A stretch of 60,797 nucleotides of DNA, the filler included, from Squatina squatina (lineage: Eukaryota), in the NCBI GenBank assembly GCA_031763465.1. It is 3 parts of 2 records of this genome, joined end to end, with 100 filler letters (N's around TTAATTAATTAA, not from the genome) between each part and the next. Parts side by side here need not be neighbours in the genome. Positions count along the whole stretch, not along the records: positions 43,645 to 60,797 come from JARFOE010000100.1; 2 more parts are not named here. One strand, written 5' to 3'. Under the pieces are notes generated by a model, which searched no databases, was not told the origin of the DNA, and saw only the letters and a list, made by a program, of their open reading frames with translations. The position numbers and the translations under genes were made by a program. Below, piece after piece: positions 4,066 through 60,797 of this stretch (the stretch's first letter is position 1; each line of letters starts with the position of its first letter).

Positions 4066-4658
4066 GTCTTAGTTGACAATTTCCCCAAATGGGTGGAAGC
4101 TTTCCTATCTTAAGCTGCTACAGCCCTGTTCATGGCCAAAACTCTAGTAAATGAAGTTTTCTCCAGATGGGGGCTTCCAGATATCATGGACTCTGATCAG
4201 GGGTCCATTTCATGGGACAGGTTTTGCAAATTGTGTTGACAATGTTGGGGGTAAAGGCCAAGTGGCATGTCACCTATCACCCACAATCCTCTGGAATCTT
4301 GGAAATAATGAATCAAACCCTTAAGGAATGGTTGAGGACGGATCTGGGCGAAGTGGATCAAAAGAAATGGGATGAAATCCTACCGGTAGTACTTATAGGT
4401 ATCAGGGCAGGAACCTCCAGATCCACTGGCTATTCCCCGCATGAGCTGGTAACGGGAAGAGCGATGAAGACAATTATACACCTGTTAGTCCCAGGGTTGA
4501 GTGACAGACAGGAACTAGAAACCAATAAGGATAAATTTGCCACTAACCGAAGAGAGAGCCTGCAAAGAGTTTTGCGAACAGGTGCTGTTAATATTGGAAA
4601 ATGCCACAGGGAAAACAAACTGCGACTAGAATGTGCAAAAACCCAAACTGCATGCTAA
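4066..4658 (+). mobile_element. degenerate Gypsy/retroviral-type integrase (rve) fragment
   Basis: VLVDNFPKWVEAF, FSRWGLPDIMDSDQG, YHPQSSGILE.MNQTLK, W...LP.VL..IR, TGYSPHEL. Contains an in-frame stop (about 4111) and a frameshift near 4205. Confidence 0.85.
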
Positions 4659-11757: not shown

Positions 11758-11958
<201 letters not shown>

Positions 11959-14648: not shown

Positions 14649-14909
14649 GACCAGCGAATGAGCAACAGCAATCACTCTGGTGAACACTTACCCGTTGAAC
14701 GAACACGCTTCGTGCACTCTGATGAAAACGGTCACAGCGAGAGGGCGCGGAAGAACCGTAACCGCTTGTCTTCAGGTTCCCAGCACAGCCGAGGCCAATA
14801 CCCACTGGTGGAGGAGGAGTATTCTGACCCCTATCAGGACACTTACAAATCACGAAGGAGTCACGGATCACCTGGAGGCCACAGCCACGATTCTCAACAA
14901 AGGCTATGA
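14649..14909 (+). CDS. CACNB4: CACNB4 last coding exon
   Basis: Acceptor ttaactag; [10 protein letters not shown]...[56 protein letters not shown], the beta-4-specific C-terminus. Confidence 0.96.
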
Positions 14910-16849: not shown

Positions 16850-19309
16850 TAGTTGCTGCTTTAATTGGTATGGGAATTATTAATAAGAAATATATTTAAC
16901 ATACTGTACAACAGAGTTACCCTGTGCAGGGTTCTATGAAAGGTATCCTTCTGTGTAAGGTCTATAGCATTCTTTCTTACAGCACACAGTTTATAGTATT
17001 TTCAGTATTCTGAAGAGCATGTCGGGTAACTTCCATTTCCTATGCAAATGTGCACAGTGTTGCATGTTATGCTGACTGTTCCCTCAGCTTCTCAGTGGCA
17101 TTTTGTTTTGGAGATTTCAGAAATTGATTGCTTCGCTATTTTTCGTGTACAGAGAATTGGAAAATCAAATGTAAATGGCGTGCATGGAATTATCAGTATT
17201 TCTGAAAAAAATATGGTTTCTGGAAATTAGATGTTAAAATCAGCTGCATTTTCAATATAGATTAGTATATGGTCACCGTGGAATTAAGTGTCCAACATTC
17301 AAACCTGCTTGAATTTTATCTAATTTTGGTTCTTTTATTGTACCAATTCAAAAAATTAAAAATTTATTTGATTGCTCTGTAACACTACTTTTAATTGCCC
17401 TAATTGAATGTATACATCAGAAATTTAACCAAGTTGAGATGGCTTGTTTTCTAAATAGCTATATCTTTAAAGCTGAGGGGGGTTTTCAGCTTACCTTTCT
17501 TGATCACTACTTAAAGATCTCTTTTCAGTTACTTTGAGAAATGATTCATGGTCTGTATCGATCTGAATTCTGTTCACAAGATTTTCTATTTATTTTGAAG
17601 CGCACGATTAATTAGTGAAAGAATGATTGCTCCAAAAATGAAACTGTATTTTGCTGAAGTCATGTACGTGCCCAGCACCAGTGGCATCCATTGTTTTCAG
17701 GTGGGATCCATTACTAAGATTTGCTCGCAATTAGAAAATTAAATGTTCTTAACCAAGTTTGACTTTTGATTTTCCAATATGGGTAAATATTATACGGTGC
17801 TACAATTAGAGGTTTTGTACATTAAAATTGATTGCTGNNNNNNNNNNNNNNNNNNNNNNNNNNNNNNNNNNNNNNNNNNNNNNNNNNNNNNNNNNNNNNN
17901 NNNNNNNNNNNNNNNNNNNNNNNNNNNNNNNNNNNNNGAGAAAATGTTAAACGTTGAAATTACTAATTGTGATTGAATTGTGCATACATTTACTGCTAAG
18001 TGGTGATCCAGATTATCTGGATCCCAGAATACGCAGTGAGCTCACTGCAGTCCCAAATAAGTGTTGGCATTGAATAAGTCTAATTTTAACATGTATAAAT
18101 AGTGTTAGGATTTAATATGTTCCCCCGAAGGTTCAAAGTTACAAATAAGGTTTGTTCTACACTTTTGCTTTTTTGGGGAGTGACGGAAGGGGAGAAGAAG
18201 AACTAGGGAAGGGAGCAGCCTGATGCTGTTTTTGACTGGTCAAGCCCCATTTGAAATGCTCATAAGTACTGAGCATCGAGTTACTTGTTTTTGTTTAGTC
18301 TCCGAACATTGGAACTTTAATTGTCTTGGTTATAAGTTTTTAACTTTTTATATGTGCACATTTTAGAATGAAACTGCATCTTGGCACAGCAATCTTTTTT
18401 AAAAAATTAATTTGAGTGTTTCATATCTCCGATCTTTTACGGGTTTCATGATGTATTCAAAAATATATTGCATCGAATTGAGTAAACCCTGCAAATACAT
18501 GAGCCTATGCGACATAGGCCGGGAGTTTCCTCATCTGTTCCCTGCTCTGCCACCATAATTTCACTGGAAATGCGGCAGATATTAATTTACGTACGTCAAC
18601 AGGCACTTGTGGTGAAATTATGGGATGGCGTGGGAGTAATTTAGAGGGAATTCCCCACCCATAATTTTGATTTTGCACACATAGAAAATTCTTTAAATAA
18701 TTATAAAGAATTAAACAACAAAGGATCAAAAATGGTCAATTTTGGATTTGAGTAGTTGTAAGTGAAATGGCAAATAAAACGCCAGCCTTCTGAAAACAGC
18801 TTTTCTGGGTCAAAAACCTGAATTTAAAAAATTCATTCTGCAATGGCCTAGGCTGTTCAAAATGGGAGAAGGGTTTGGTTAAAATAGGTAATACTAATTG
18901 TTCCTCAAAAATCTACTGACAGATGAAAATTTGATTTGCTTCAAGAAGGGAAATAAAACCCATTTTATCTCTGAATTTCAAACACATGCCGTTTGTTCTC
19001 CACTTGATCTGATTGTTATTGGCATAGTTGATCTTTGTTGATTGATTCAGATCTTTGTTGATTCAGATCTTTGTTGATCCAGTCAAGCCTGGCTTTATGC
19101 ACTAGAATTATTTGAAAGTCAAAAATCCTAACCAGTGCCTGCAGCTGTTTTCCTAACTTTCATAAAAGAGTCTTTGATGGATTTTACTTCTGTTTGAATT
19201 GAGTGCAGTGCTCAAAGGCTATTTGGTGTCAGCTTGGCTGAGTTGACAGCACTCTTACCTCTGAGNNNNNNNNNNNNNNNNNNNNNNNNNNNNNNNNNNN
19301 NNNNNNNNN

Positions 19310-19321
19310 TTAATTAATTAA
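19310..19321. other. assembly linker TTAATTAATTAA (six-frame stop) inside an N gap
   Basis: Flanked by exactly 44 N on each side, totalling 100 bp. An identical construct is at 43589-43600. Confidence 0.95.
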
Positions 19322-19834
19322 NNNNNNNNNNNNNNNNNNNNNNNNNNNNNNNNNNNNNNNNNNNNAAAGCCTGGTCCAAGTGTGACTTATAGCTGAAGTG
19401 ATGTAAAGGTTCACTTACTTAAGTAATGGGATCCCTCCCCTGGTAATTGGCTCTGTTGGTGTTTTTTATCCATTAAGGATAAGTGTTTACCACTGAAATG
19501 GGTCCATATAGGAAAATATGACAAGGCACCATGAGCGCATGCTATCACGCCAAGCCTATTATTTTCTGCCTGGCATTAATTCATTGTAAAAAATATTGAC
19601 AATTGGAAGATATGGCCCACTGATCCTTAAATTAGTTTTATTTGGAATCTGAGCAAAACTTTATTCATTTCTTAGGAATGCACAGCTGAAAGTCCTCGGT
19701 TAATTTATGTGAATACAATGGGTATAACCAACAAAAAATGTTTGACTCTATTAAAGGTTTTATTCACTTAACTTCCCCATACCAACAATGCTTAACTATA
19801 TCCCTACTAAATATTCTTTCGAGGTTAAGAAAAA

Positions 19835-42100: not shown

Positions 42101-43588
42101 TGGAAAAATGAAAGGTGCCATTTTGAGCCAATGCATATGTTAATTGTTTTACTGTATCACTGTATGCACAAATCTAAAAGTATTGCAGATATGTAACTCC
42201 TAAGTGTTACACTGTCTAAGTAAGTAGAGTGCACTCTAAGCACCACAACAGACAAAAGTGCTTGCCTCTTTTATCATTTTTACTTTACCAGCAACTAAAG
42301 CAGTTCCACTTTTAAAACACTGACCATCTGTTGATTCTATCATCTAATTTGTTGCACAAGTTTTCAAAGTCACATCTACATTTTATCAAAAGTGTATAAT
42401 TATCGAGAACATTGTCTTCTAGTAACAGTCCGCAAATGGAACCAATTCTTCTGTTTCTTTCCAGCTCGAATGCGGTGCCAATTTATGAGCAGCAGGTCAA
42501 AGGCATGAAAGTCAACCTGGTCAGAATCAGTGACACATTGTGCAATGTTTTAGATACAGTGCAGTACTGCTTGCAAATGTTTCTCAGATTTTTCAAGTTT
42601 TATATACATTAGAGGCCTGCAATGTACTGCAGAACCTCTGGTACCCCGAATTAACACTTGAAAAGATGAGGGGCACCCAATTACATTGCCCANNNNNNNN
42701 NNNNNNNNNNNNNNNNNNNNNNNNNNNNNNNNNNNNNNNNNNNNNNNNNNNNNNNNNNNNNNNNNNNNNNNNNNNNNNNNNNNNNNNNNNNNCGTTTCCC
42801 CCCCCCCCCCCCCCAAGAAATGCTTACAAGTAGCACAGTGACTCTTTCTAGCTTGCCCTGTGGAGATGCGCCTGATAACAGAAACAGGTATCAGACAACA
42901 ACTTTACCCTATGGCATTCTGAGCTCAAATTAATGAGGTTTCTCAGTTATTATAGAACGGTCACACAATGAGGACTTTCTAACAATTACTTTTGAAAATA
43001 AATGCAATTGAAAATGGAACCATCTGTGGATCAGAATTTTTTTTTTTTACACAATTTGGATGAGTTATTGAAAGGAGACATGAATCTTTTGCTTCAAAAT
43101 AAATTAGTTACATGCACACTACTTGACAACTTGTAAAACCTTTCAGCATCATTGTGCATTCTAAGCAAATATAACATTTCAGTGCAAACGCCATTATAGC
43201 TAAAGTAGCAATCAAAACCTGGATGCATGAGGACCAAGTCAAACCTTAGAACTGTAGTTCTAGAACTGCTTATGTGACACTATGGATAAGCTATTTAAAA
43301 GATCCAAATAACAGAGTTTGGTGAACGTGGATATTTGTGGTGCTACATTGGCGAATACCTTTATTACTTGTTGACTAAATATTAGTCCAGCACTAAGCAC
43401 ATTGACTATAGGTTTCTCATACTACTGATAACTTCACATAAAAAGTACTAAAACAGTACTACAACCTCTATCACAGCAATGATTAAATACTTTTAAATTG
43501 TCATTCACACCAAGGATAAAGTTACTATTGCTGAGCACAAAATANNNNNNNNNNNNNNNNNNNNNNNNNNNNNNNNNNNNNNNNNNNN

Positions 43589-43600
43589 TTAATTAATTAA
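43589..43600. other. assembly linker TTAATTAATTAA inside an N gap
   Basis: 44 N + TTAATTAATTAA + 44 N. Confidence 0.95.
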
Positions 43601-44957
43601 NNNNNNNNNNNNNNNNNNNNNNNNNNNNNNNNNNNNNNNNNNNNAAACTGAAAATCATGCAAAATGACAGATGCTAATAATAATATGCCTTTAACTAGCA
43701 TGTGCTGTGTATTAATATGTACAGTGTAAGTAACTGGAAAATATACATATTCAGATCTACAGGTAATGCAATTGTGGCAGTCATTTAAAAATCTGGCTTT
43801 TAAGTTTGTGATGCGACGTTTAGTGGTTCACTGCACCTTTTTAAAATTCAACAAATGTGTTAATTTCTTGAAATTGTATAATTTCTTGCACTTTGCACTG
43901 TATTAAATCTATACTAGGTAGGATTTTCAACAATTACATTGAATTTTATTCAAAAGTGCATGCAGCACCTGGCTCCTTCGCACCCAGATGTAACATACTG
44001 CCCGAATATTATCAAGTTAAGGAATTTATGCTATCTTTATGAAGCTAGATGGAAGTAAAATGTATCGTATTTCAATCAGTGTGCTTCTTGGTCTCCACAC
44101 TGACATTTTTCTGATATGATGCCTCCCGAGCACAGTGATAAACATGCTCAGTCCTGACACCAGTTGGAAGCCATTGCAGATAAGTAACCAGCTCCAGATA
44201 GGTCTGTAGGAGTATACCCCTCACTGACTGTCTGCATTGCAATTCATATTTCCGGCAGCAGTCCTGATGTGTTGGTGTATAAGAGCTCTCAGAATGATGG
44301 AGATCGCTGGAACAGCAATTCTCAGAATTCCAGACGTGTGTGCAATATAACAGCTGTATTGGTGCTATGCTTCTTGTCTTCAGGCAGTATGAGCTCCCGC
44401 AAAGGTAATGGAGCACAATGATGCTAATTAAATGTTATTGTGATTCTCTGAAGTATTTTCACTAAATGGTGTTACATTTTGTCATCCAAGTTATACTGTA
44501 TTAGAAGCAGCTCTGCCTTGTGAAATCTATATTTTACAGTAACGTGATGAGCATGAAGTTAATTTATGTTTCAGAAAAGGCACTTCACAGTCATTTGGCT
44601 GTCAGAAATTATTATTTTCTGGTATCATATCTATATTCGTTAAATGCAGAAATAGCTTTACTTACTGTGTGCAGTTCATCCCATGGTGCATAAATAAAGC
44701 TGTTCCTTTTCTGAATTTATGTGGCTTAGATTGTAATTTTATGTGTGGCTTTGCTGCATACACTGCTGCAGAATACTTGCAAACTAACCAAAAAAAAATC
44801 TGAATTTTTGTTGTGTGCTTCATGTTGGTCTTTTGTGCTGGTGCATATTCAGAGATCNNNNNNNNNNNNNNNNNNNNNNNNNNNNNNNNNNNNNNNNNNN
44901 NNNNNNNNNNNNNNNNNNNNNNNNNNNNNNNNNNNNNNNNNNNNNNNNNNNNNNNNN

Positions 44958-56832: not shown

Positions 56833-57210
56833 AAGCTGGGCACTTTCTCTAGAAAAGAGGAGACTGAGAGGTGAGTTGATAGAGGTCTTTATGATTATGG
56901 AAGAGTTAGATAGGGTAGCTATAGAGATGATGTTTCCACTTGTGGGGGGTGGGGGGGGTGCAGAACTAGGGGCTATAAATATAATAGTCACTGATAAATC
57001 CAATAGGGGGTTCAGGTCAAACTTCTTTACCAAGAGTGTGGAACTCGCTACAACAAGGAGTACTTGAGGCAAATAGTACAGATGCATTTAAGGGGAAGCT
57101 CGATGAGCACATGAGAGAGAAAGGAATAGAAGGAGAGGTTGATTGGGTTCGATGAAAAAGGGTGGGAGGAGGCTCATGTGGAGCATAAACACTGGCCTGT
57201 TTCTGTGTCA
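56833..57210 (+). mobile_element. CR1 LINE 3' end
   Basis: KLGTFS..KRRLRGELIEVFMIMEELDRV...MFPLV and tail GATGCATTTAAGGGGAAGCT...GGAGGAGGCTCATGTGGAGCATAAACAC. Confidence 0.85.
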
Positions 57211-57453
57211 TAAGTACTAAGAAGAAGGAGAAGAAGGCTATGTAATACACTGTAATAGTCCCAATTTAACACTTGACAGTATTATCACAATTAGACGAGG
57301 AGACAATTTCTTCACAGAAATCCCATTTATATAACTTTTTAATTATTTACAATTTTAAAATATTTCATAATTGTAACAAATTCAATTCACAAGTAACTTC
57401 TGTAAAAATGCAATATTTCAACTTCACGCTGAAGGAATCAATGACAATGCTGG

Positions 57454-57621
57454 CTGGTACAAGCAGGACGCAGTATTGTCTAGGAAATATCTACTGGTTA
57501 AAGCAATGGGTATTATCAGTGCCACTCACTGGTACAAACAGGACGCAGTATTGTCTAGGAAATGTTTATTGGCTAAAGCAGCTTCCCTACCTTGGGTATT
57601 ATCAGTGCCACTCACTGGTAC
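57454..57621. repeat. imperfect tandem duplication (75/86 bp units)
   Basis: CTGGTACAA.CAGGACGCAGTATTGTCTAGGAAAT...TGGGTATTATCAGTGCCACTCA occurs twice (starting at 57454 and 57529), with a third CTGGTAC at 57615. Confidence 0.9.
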
Positions 57622-57697
57622 GTCTCATGTCTATATTAGGATCACTAGTCCTTTGCTACCACATCACCTAAATACACGTTGTCCTGAACAAGTTCAG

Positions 57698-57703
57698 TTT
57701 ATT
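57698..57703 (-). promoter_or_regulatory. candidate polyA signal of the DDO-like gene
   Basis: TTTATT on + equals AATAAA on -, about 250 nt after the stop codon. Confidence 0.4.
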
Positions 57704-57950
57704 CTAATATTGCTTTTCCAGAAATAAGGAAACAGGGTTTTAATGTTTTTTTTAGATGATAATAATAGCATCAATAGTAAACGGGAAGGAGACAGATACA
57801 GTAATTGTATCAATTAAATATTTGATTAAAAACCAGATGAACTGAGACTAAAAATTTTAACGAGATTAATTTTTTTGTAAATCGCTTGGCGGCCTTAATA
57901 CTAACCATTTAGTATTGTTTCTGCAACTAATCAATGGGTCCCATGATGAT

Positions 57951-58497
57951 TTAGATGTCTATTTCTGTTGTGCACTCCTTCACCAGTTGTGCAGCTTCCA
58001 TGGCAGTTCCCCAGTGGTGAGAAACACCAGCCACACCATGGCCGTAATTGTGCACCAAGCACATCTGGCGCCCGTCATGTTCCAGCTTCTCCTTTTCCAG
58101 TCTCAATGCTGCTCTAACAGGCCTCAGACCGACCGCTTCAGATAGCTTACGAGAGAGCTTGAGACTTGGTTCGTAAGCACAACACGCCTCAAAAATTGCC
58201 TTGCTGTCAGATGGGTCGACTGACAGCCGCCAATCGTCTTTCTGCCTTGTTCCGCCCAAAGTAACACTGGAGAGTCCTGGGTAGATATAAGAGGTACCAT
58301 CGCCTACATGGACAAAGTGTTTCAGCCAAGGAGCATGAACTTTATGGACTTGGCCCCTTATTGGATATATTTTCATATCCCCAGTAAGTGCCCTGGCTCC
58401 AATGCCTGAACAGTTCACAATAACGTCATACTTTCCATCAAGCTCCCAGAAATCTGTGATCTTCCCAGCCTGCAACTGGCCTCCAGCATTCTTTAAC
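57951..58497 (-). CDS. D-aspartate oxidase-like (DAO/DDO family flavoenzyme), terminal coding exon, antisense inside KALRN
   Basis: Acceptor aattgcag at 58498-58500, then an uninterrupted frame LKNAGGQLQAGKITDFWEL...DVIVNCSGIGA...PIRGQV...YIYPG...VTLGGTRQ...GLRPVR...HNYGHG...HWGTAMEAA...EIDI*. It is colinear with the single large last exon of vertebrate DDO. Orthology to DDO itself is not established. Confidence 0.92.
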
Positions 58498-58794
58498 CTG
58501 CAATTAATAATTCAATCTTCACCAAAACGTTGTGCTTACAAAGAAAATTATAAAGTCAGTATTATTCAATCAATAAGTTTGTTGGGGAAAGAAAAGCATC
58601 GGGTTCCCCTCCCTACACCGCTAACGAGCTTCAGGCAGCCTGCTACAGCTTGCCAGCAGTGGGCTGACGCAATTTTGGCAGCAAGGTAGGTCCTGGTAAA
58701 ACTCGGTGGACCGAACATGGAACACGCTCTGCCCAATTGTCAGTCAAAATTGCAATTGCGGTCCTATGTATATCATACCGCATGAAACGGTTAA

Positions 58795-59246
58795 AGAAAG
58801 ACTTGCATTTATAAAGTGCTTTTCATGACCACCAGACGTTCCAAAGCACTTTACAGCCAATTAAGTACTTTTGGAGTGTAGTCACCATTATAACGTGGGA
58901 AACACGGCAACCAGTTTGCACACAGCAAGCTCCCACAACAGCAATGTGATAATAACCATATAATCCGTTTTTTAGTGATGTTGATTGAGGGATAAATTTT
59001 GGCTCGGACACTGTGGCTAACAACCCTGCTCTTCTTCAAAATAGTGCCATAGGAGAGGGCCTCTGTTTAACGTCTCACCTGAAAGACGGCAGCTCCAACA
59101 GTGCAGCATCTCTGGCAGTGCAGCACTCCCTCAGTATTGCACTGGAGTGTCAGCCTAGATTGTCTGCTCAAGTCCCTGGCGTGGGGCCTGAACCATTAAC
59201 CTTCAGACTCGGAGATGCGAGTACTACGACTCAGCCAATGCTGACA
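58795..59246 (-). mobile_element. near full-length DeuSINE/SacSINE1-like SINE
   Basis: tRNA-like head (TTGGCTGAGTCGTAGTACTC...GGTTCAGGCCCCAC), central CCAGTGCAATACTGAGGGAGTGCTGCACTG...TTTATCCCTCAATCAACATCACT block, and tail ATAAATGCAAGTCTTTCTT on the - strand. Confidence 0.85.
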
Positions 59247-59498
59247 CTTTGGGAATAAGAAAAAAAACTAATCAAAACAAAGTAAAAAGGAGAAGTAGTA
59301 GCAGGTGAACATTAGAAAGTTTATGTTTCTTGCAATTACTGTATCAGAACTAACATCTTTGAATTTCGGATTTGTAGATTGCTGCATCTACTGGTCATGC
59401 GTCAGTAATCTAGGAAATATCTATTCCAAGTCATGTAAATGTAAGATTTTTCAATATCAGTGCTGAAATGCTGATTCTGTTGAAATATCTTTTTTCAG

Positions 59499-60011
59499 AC
59501 AAGTATGGTATCCGTGGAAGGGCTTTCAAAGTTGGTGGATCCTTCCCAATTGACTGAAGAATTTGATGGCACACTGGACTATAATCATGATGAATGGATT
59601 GAGCTTCGACTGGCGCTGGAAGAGTTCATCAGCAGTGCTGTGCATCTGTTATCCAGACTAGAAGACCTGCAGGAGATGTTGGCCCGGAAGGAATTTCCCC
59701 TGGATGTTGAAGGTTCTCGAAAATTAATTGATGAGCATACACAACTGAAGAAAAAGGTCATCAAAGCCCCTGTGGAGGAACTGGACCACGAGGGGCAAAG
59801 GTTGCTGCAGTGTATAAGGTGCAGTGATGGTTTTTCTGGAAAGAACTGCATATCTGGCAGTGCAGATTTTCAAAGCGTTGTGCCAAAGATTACCAGTCTA
59901 CTGGATAAACTACACTCAACTAGACAGCACTTACATCAGATGTGGCATGTTAGGAAACTGAAGTTAGATCAATGCTTCCAACTTCGGCTCTTTGAGCAAG
60001 ATGCAGAAAAG
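59499..60011 (+). CDS. KALRN: Kalirin exon 5 (end of Sec14 domain and first spectrin repeat, 513 bp)
   Basis: Acceptor ttttttcag; TSMVSVEGLSKLVDPSQLTEEFDGTLDYNHDEWIELR...QCFQLRLFEQDAEK; donor GTAAAG. Confidence 0.96.
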
Positions 60012-60797
60012 GTAAAGTTCCATCTGCATAGTTTTTAACGCGATGTGTTCGCTATATGTTTATAACAAATTTACTTAATCCTCCCTCTCTCTCTCTTTTA
60101 TATAACATCTAACACAGTTCACCATCTTTCTTCAAACATGGCAGCAAAGGACTCCCAGGAATCACATGCATTTGATTTTCAAATCTGAATAAACAGAAAA
60201 TGATATTTTATATTGGGTGTTAACGCTTAATAAAATCGGATTAATTTTTCATTCCCCCTCCCAACTCTTATTTTTAATTTATTCAATACTGATTGGAATT
60301 TTCATTAACCCATGAATGGCCACTTGGTAATTGAGTAGGCATTTCCCAGGAATGCTTCATTTATTAAAAAAGATTGTGGTGAAGCTCAGTTAGGCAGCAC
60401 TGACAAGAGGCTTGATTTGAGCCCTGCACCTTTGCTGCACAGTGTATAGTTTCAGACTTCATTTAATTTCATGACTACTGCATTTTCACCATTTGCTTAT
60501 ATTCATGTGCGTGAAAAATATCACCATTTACTACATGCCTTTGACATTACATATGTAATATTCTGGGCCTGTGTGACAGTGTGGCATATAATATTGGCCT
60601 GGAATTTGCAGTGGGTAATAACAGCGAGCGAACAGTGTGCGCTGTTATTACCCCTTTAAAACTGATTGCAACCTCAGGATTTAGTGCATGTGCATCTAAA
60701 CGCGGAAATCCTGAAGTTGCAGTCAGTCATTCATTGCTCCGCCGCTGGCTCTGCTGTGCCCCCCACTCCCCATAACTGGCAATCAGTGTAATCGGGA

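Follow-up and report, generated by a model that had tools for sequence, protein, structure and literature searches.

What is an exon of D-aspartate oxidase (DDO) doing about 1.0 kb from an exon of KALRN, and to what kind of gene does it belong? The question arises from a stretch of the Squatina squatina genome (60,797 nucleotides, filler included; hereafter the window), a draft that is broken by 40 N-gaps into contigs with a median length of 1,213 bases, so that unknown lengths lie hidden in the gaps. Both exons are carried by one gap-free stretch, 56833-60797. The original prediction, made from the window alone, had taken the two genes to be interleaved antisense. We lean, by a small margin of confidence, to a different account: an intact variant DDO last exon that is likely an alternative ending of the DDO gene, with a substrate pocket predicted to be changed, and a neighborhood with KALRN that is likely an assembly join.

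Identity and Boundaries of the DDO Exon

The features of the locus are as follows, X10 being one of several sequencing runs from other organisms that are described below.

57951..58497, minus strand: variant DDO last exon ("5a"), coding part to the stop; 547 bp, 181 codons
58498..58499, minus strand: splice acceptor AG of the DDO exon; contigs of relatives diverge here into the ...YLPWLEK exon
57927..57959, minus strand: tail of the variant exon when translation is continued beyond the early TAA as far as a second stop; its codons align one to one with those of the bamboo-shark variant tail
57343..57950, minus strand: likely 3′ untranslated flank; AATAAA occurs at 57703 and 57570, and low-depth X10 contigs match parts of it
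58500..58612, minus strand: end of the DDO intron before the acceptor; X10 has two versions, ~95% and ~84% alike to the window
58793..59237, no strand given: high-copy repeat between the DDO exon and KALRN exon 5
59089..59122, no strand given: 17-base internal duplication within the repeat, its units 76% alike; candidate join
59499..60011, plus strand: KALRN exon 5, AG/GT, 171 codons
55753..55867, plus strand: KALRN exon 3, carried by the preceding contig; an unsized 100-N gap lies between

The 547-bp minus-strand terminal exon was found as originally described, with an AG at 58499-58498, one base completing an Arg codon, and then 181 open codons to a TAA at 57953-57951. Its product belongs to the Pfam DAO family, and among solved structures the closest relative is human DDO (6RKF; E 1e-64, vs. 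2e-38 for DAO). The exon is closer to DDO than to DAO also in its short 217-221 loop, which is without the six-residue insertion of DAO, and an ESM Atlas search with it returned a DDO-like cluster only. By protein identity it is closest to squalomorph DDOs, matching those of Heptranchias and Pristiophorus at 157 of 179 residues each.

The reported lack of an upstream DDO exon was borne out: a TBLASTN search with 18 full-length DDOs (13 chondrichthyan) detected none of exons 2-4 in 58500-60797, nor in the rest of the window, and an 18-base pattern for the end of the preceding exon gave no matches at three mismatches. The N-terminal exon with the FAD-binding GxGxxG motif is also absent from the window and is present in bamboo-shark models that end in the same variant exon. 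No canonical copy of the last exon occurs in the 1.1 kb downstream on the same contig. The retained acceptor had been held to argue against a retrocopy, and we agree that the exon is a DNA-level copy, as homology to it ends at the acceptor in spliced contigs and enters the intron in X10. A retrocopy, which needs fused upstream exons and a lost intron, was rejected, since X10 records match on into the intron.

The plus-strand exon at 59499-60011 belongs to KALRN rather than to TRIO, its identity being 99.4% with Heterodontus kalirin and 92% with human kalirin, against 71% with TRIO. KALRN exons 2 and 4 were not found in the window. An Rfam search of 56833-60797 gave nothing at gathering level.

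Several other features of the window were recorded. Further high-copy repeats lie at the start (56833-57196) and end (60590-60760) of the contig, and the flank downstream of the DDO exon contains a tandem duplication of ~80-90 bases (57454-57621; 82% alike) that is apparently single in an X10 contig. An odd gap pattern of 44 N, 12 bases, and 44 N, a scaffolding signature, occurs twice (19266-19365 and 43545-43644). Voltage-gated calcium channel beta subunit exons are found on the plus strand at 11794-11940, which best matches beta-4, and at 14649-14906, which we take to resemble the CACNB4 C-terminal exon; the beta-4 exon stands 44 kb upstream of KALRN, a nearness probably compressed by unsized gaps. 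A 153-codon open frame at 4197-4655 (plus strand) presumably resembles a retroelement integrase fragment, and it had no Pfam match at E 0.001.

Pocket Residues and Tail of the Window's Copy

The DDO last exon encodes ~190 of 343 residues and with them Arg216, Tyr223, Arg237, Arg278, position 308, and the C-terminal targeting tripeptide. Residue roles were taken from alignment to 6RKF and from a review that covers human DDO (PMC8260693), according to which the specificity of DDO is set by Arg216 and the R216Q form acquires activity on D-Ala. Departures were scored at 103 columns that hardly vary among 18 canonical chondrichthyan exons. The window's copy departs at six of the 103, and in human numbering it has H216, A283, V308, H313, and M319 at nearly invariant columns. 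Arg216, the binder of the acidic side chain, is His (codon 63), and Gly308 is Val. Tyr223 and Arg278, which hold the α-carboxylate, and the gate residue Arg237 are kept (codons Y70, R125, and R84), as is S312. The frame ends in ...EIDI without a C-terminal peroxisomal tripeptide, where canonical shark copies end in ..KL or ..RL. A canonical DDO exon was therefore rejected as the identity of this copy, which fails on both R216 and the peroxisomal targeting signal.

K319M and F313H are private to the window's copy, and so is the stop that ends its tail early. Its tail needs at least 9 base changes in 33 to encode the bamboo-shark variant tail, vs. 19-22 for 10 canonical tails; the likeness has a shuffle p of 0.006, and the final stop is at the same place. 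The end branch of the window's copy (0.053) falls between those of canonical copies (0.048 and 0.058).

One N-Terminus, Several Last Exons in Shark Gene Models

The same variant is annotated in bamboo sharks. All four full-length DDO accessions of Chiloscyllium plagiosum (XP_043543064-67) have as their last exon one that encodes H216, V308, and L313 and whose tail lacks KL, and the canonical exon of this species is annotated separately on the same record, as a "DDO-like" gene with an unrelated N-terminus. The Hemiscyllium model passes through the variant exon and then the canonical exon, and in an older C. punctatum model the canonical exon follows the same N-terminus. A tandem order of the copies would fit the fused Hemiscyllium model and the shared C. 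plagiosum record; the window has one copy. The C. plagiosum variant departs at 3 of the 103 columns, all among the window's six (P 1e-4), and the Hemiscyllium variant at five, four of which are among the window's six (P 2e-5). To judge from these columns and the tail, the window and bamboo-shark variant copies are very likely orthologous, and if so the duplication would therefore predate the split of galeomorph and squalomorph sharks, roughly 250-300 million years ago. A lone decaying duplicate with a replaced tail had also been considered and was dropped because the same variant is present in bamboo sharks.

Catsharks have further forms. Isoforms of S. canicula end in three last exons (R216/R237/G308, C216/W237/K308, and C216/W237/G308), and S. 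torazame has two last exons and a separate partial copy. Across the annotated isoforms X1, X2, and X3 of S. canicula and X1 and X2 of S. torazame, all automatic models, the N-termini are identical at 148 of 148 positions and the last exons differ; shark gene models attach different copies of the last exon to the same residues 1-152. Models holding variant exons are XP_043543064-67, XP_043531280, XP_060710523, XP_038655096-102, XP_072356110-117, and XP_072356684 (RefSeq/GenBank, automatic). R216 is missing from all seven variant exons, a count that is partly circular for this one site because "canonical" was assigned by R216 in multicopy species, and the frames of all seven are open. Among 103 bony-vertebrate DDOs, of which 8 did not match the scoring motifs, R216 is present in 95/95 scorable proteins and S, G, or A stands at 308 in 95/95. 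No variant isoform is annotated in the DDO clusters of Rhincodon, Stegostoma, Heptranchias, or Pristiophorus, or for Carcharodon, Cetorhinus, Mustelus, Heterodontus, rays, or chimaera.

The original prediction had suggested a second DDO paralogue or a relocated gene. A second, noncanonical copy does exist, but an alternative last exon belonging to one DDO gene is the better reading of it. The "D-aspartate oxidase-like" models of three bamboo sharks (P0002, P0001, and P0284), which consist of a canonical last exon with an unrelated N-terminus or of both copies fused, are best seen as probable artefacts caused by the duplicated exon. Rhinoraja (P0179/P0540), Microcaecilia (P0184/P0543), and Lissotriton (P0260/P0548) each have a pair of whole-gene DDO copies on one record, all with the canonical R216, so DDO duplicates locally in other lineages too. 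Single substitutions at the same positions were also seen: Pro occupies 308 in Narcine DDO (P0177), and the one listed form of Amblyraja DDO carries Trp at 237 (P0181).

Likeness of Copies within Lineages

In a tree built from codons 1-150 (29 rows, after removal of a duplicate C. punctatum row), each variant stands beside the canonical copy of its own lineage, and the three variants were joined in 0% of 200 bootstrap trees. The two C. plagiosum copies are identical at 148 of 150 residues, one of the two differences being at 216, and differ at 8 of the last 29 residues; H216 persists in otherwise homogenized sequence in three species. This pattern would fit gene conversion that spared active-site differences. 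R216H, R216C, and R237W are CpG-type changes, able to recur without selection, and G308V, V283A, F313L/H, and the tail are non-CpG changes common to both lineages.

Contigs from Other Organisms

Six of the 12 sequencing runs share only 5-8% of the window's words, all six being from other organisms, and five were compared. Runs X1, X3, X9, and X10, which we guess to be RNA, each have one contig whose match to the window is exactly 57960-58499 (540 bases, 48-61 of them different); X6 does not cover the DDO exon. Past the acceptor, the X1, X3, and X9 contigs pass into the preceding ...YLPWLEK exon (loose contig ends were translated by hand) and are therefore spliced. At the other end, the contigs of all four runs enter a tail leading to a ...SK(L) ending, unlike the window's tail.

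Low-depth X10 contigs match the window's own tail and flank. The two X10 versions of the intron end are similar in depth, as DNA carry-over would also give. A contig with the canonical tail, the window-type tail and flank, and two intron versions together mean that X10 has two copies of the exon's surroundings; as judged by tail and flank, the window holds the noncanonical one. The compared runs yielded no separate contig for the body of the variant exon, and their contigs report presence, not expression. The canonical ending is spliced in run contigs; the variant ending comes from RefSeq models only.

Fourteen sites, counted by hand from 40 of 122 rows, differ from the window in all four runs, 10 changing a residue and 4 not, where 211 nonsynonymous and 65 synonymous sites are available. 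Roughly half of the 10 residue changes fall at old variant-type sites, and the 10:4 count, which mixes these with recent changes, is compatible with decay or with none and neither shows nor excludes it.

The Link with KALRN

Interleaving had rested only on the lack of upstream exons in the window's last 2.3 kb. In both testable sharks, DDO and KALRN are assigned to separate chromosome-scale records, of 138,146,672 vs. 118,100,771 bases in Chiloscyllium plagiosum and of 214,641,634 vs. 141,968,375 bases in Heterodontus. The supposed interleaving was thus not supported, and neither was the transcriptional coupling of DDO to KALRN that had been offered as speculation. The best 120 of 1,028 KALRN matches include two shark species, neither of them squalomorph, and these records are compatible with a lineage-specific move of a DDO piece in squalomorphs.

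Between the two exons lies the repeat at 58793-59237, presumably SINE-like. Its 17-base unit is doubled here and is read once in other copies of the repeat (loose ends), and no target-site duplication is evident around it. The doubling fits two repeat copies fused by the assembler or in vivo, and fits an old natural duplication as well. We favor, if only slightly, a chimeric assembly as the origin of this contig: the end of a contig from the DDO locus would have been fused through the repeat with the end of a contig from KALRN intron 4. The intact frame and ordinary branch length lead us to expect that the exon has upstream exons.

If the contig is instead correct, KALRN intron 4 received, in this lineage, a copied or relocated piece of the DDO locus (the variant exon, some intron, and the 3′ flank), an orphan that lacks its upstream exons. 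We regard this main rival as unlikely, though of weight: the stretch is one gap-free contig, the synonymous distance to the X1 and X10 DDO contigs is large (~19 of 65 sites; codons 75-166, by hand) next to that of KALRN exon 5 in X1 (only ~13 of 109), and the tree gives no sign of late conversion with squalomorph canonical copies, as would be expected outside an array. The annotation of Heptranchias and Pristiophorus without the variant and the private K319M, F313H, and early stop point the same way. An orphan would, however, have passed 181 codons without stop or frameshift while its flanks gathered several indels relative to X10, its end branch is no longer than canonical ones, and the repeat with its candidate join falls exactly between DDO and KALRN sequence. 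A whole DDO gene interleaved with KALRN, DDO intron 4 spanning KALRN exon 5, is in our view highly improbable. It could draw on the intact exon and acceptor with no upstream exons before the window's end, and on the fact that the window ends 786 bases past KALRN exon 5, so that such exons could lie beyond. Against this stand the separate records in C. plagiosum and Heterodontus, and a KALRN exon cannot come to be flanked by DDO exons on both sides through a single insertion; no run contig joins DDO and KALRN sequence.

A further explanation concerns function and can be combined with either location: variant exons may be nonfunctional by-products of repeated local duplication, their transcripts giving dead or truncated enzyme, with shared changes due to CpG hot spots and passive inheritance. 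The CpG nature of R216H/C and R237W, the patchy annotation among sharks, the lost targeting tail, and the bulky V or K at a position that holds a small residue in every scorable bony-vertebrate DDO all speak for it. Passive decay sits poorly, however, with the non-CpG changes common to both lineages, with open frames in each variant exon, with the use of the variant exon by every full-length C. plagiosum accession, and with the retention of H216 amid homogenized sequence. We consider it doubtful.

A Proposed Alternative Ending of DDO

The account we prefer, an alternative last exon, would work as follows. A tandem duplication of the last exon would have preceded the divergence of galeomorph from squalomorph sharks; gene conversion would then have homogenized most of the exon in each lineage while selection held the active-site differences; and the choice of acceptor and poly(A) site would select one ending per mRNA. 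Since the pocket residues and the targeting tripeptide are all encoded in the last exon, its choice would swap the pocket and the cellular address together. The H216/V308 form is predicted to be still an oxidase because Y223, R237, R278, and S312 are kept, with a weaker preference for acidic substrates; it would lose its preference for D-Asp, take neutral D-amino acids, and not enter the peroxisome. In the catshark C216/W237 forms, which mostly keep a ..PKL end, the pocket would be more hydrophobic. The broader proposal, to which we give an even chance, is that one shark DDO gene yields several enzymes by exchanging its last exon, the His216/Val308 form, which lacks the peroxisomal signal, having persisted from before the divergence of the two main shark lineages and been shielded from conversion at its substrate pocket only, and the catshark Cys216/Trp237 forms serving neutral or hydrophobic D-amino acids.

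Discussion

Vertebrate DDO is regarded as a single peroxisomal enzyme, strictly for acidic D-amino acids. Sharks appear to have natural variants at 216, 237, and 308, residues tied to specificity by mutagenesis, which would make them a natural experiment on the divergence of DDO and DAO specificity, with a possible nonperoxisomal D-amino-acid oxidase, and shark DDO a vertebrate case of an enzyme diversified through duplicated last exons. It is also the duplicated exon that explains why shark annotations contain split and fused "DDO-like" models. The variant exons are already in public annotations, as "isoforms" or "D-aspartate oxidase-like" proteins, unlabeled, split, or fused; the literature searched gave no description of the last-exon arrangement or of a DDO-KALRN pairing, and subscription journals or supplements may mention them. 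The variant last exon and its small array are the finding of value, and the adjacency to KALRN probably matters only as a caution about this assembly.

Compared with human DDO/DASPO (6RKF; PMC8260693), the window's exon is the same last exon with the same intron position and phase, and keeps Y223, R237, R278, and S312, but it has R216H, G/S308V, and no C-terminal peroxisomal tripeptide. Of the four human DDO isoforms listed in that review, none has an alternative last exon; they differ in an extension at the N-terminus or in the skipping of exon 4. Other parallels are Drosophila pipe (pip) and PGRP-LC, which have tandem duplicated, mutually exclusive terminal exons on common upstream exons, and UGT1A, one gene whose duplicated first exons carry the substrate-binding part and have separate promoters (PMC9013439). 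Like pipe and PGRP-LC, shark DDO joins homologous last exons to identical upstream exons, an arrangement known here from gene models; unlike them, it is a vertebrate flavoenzyme with a single exon in two or three copies, whose differences are concentrated on a few active-site residues amid signs of gene conversion. Like UGT1A, shark DDO is one gene with several duplicated exons bearing the substrate-binding part, but where UGT1A varies its first exon, shark DDO varies the last, which also bears the targeting signal.
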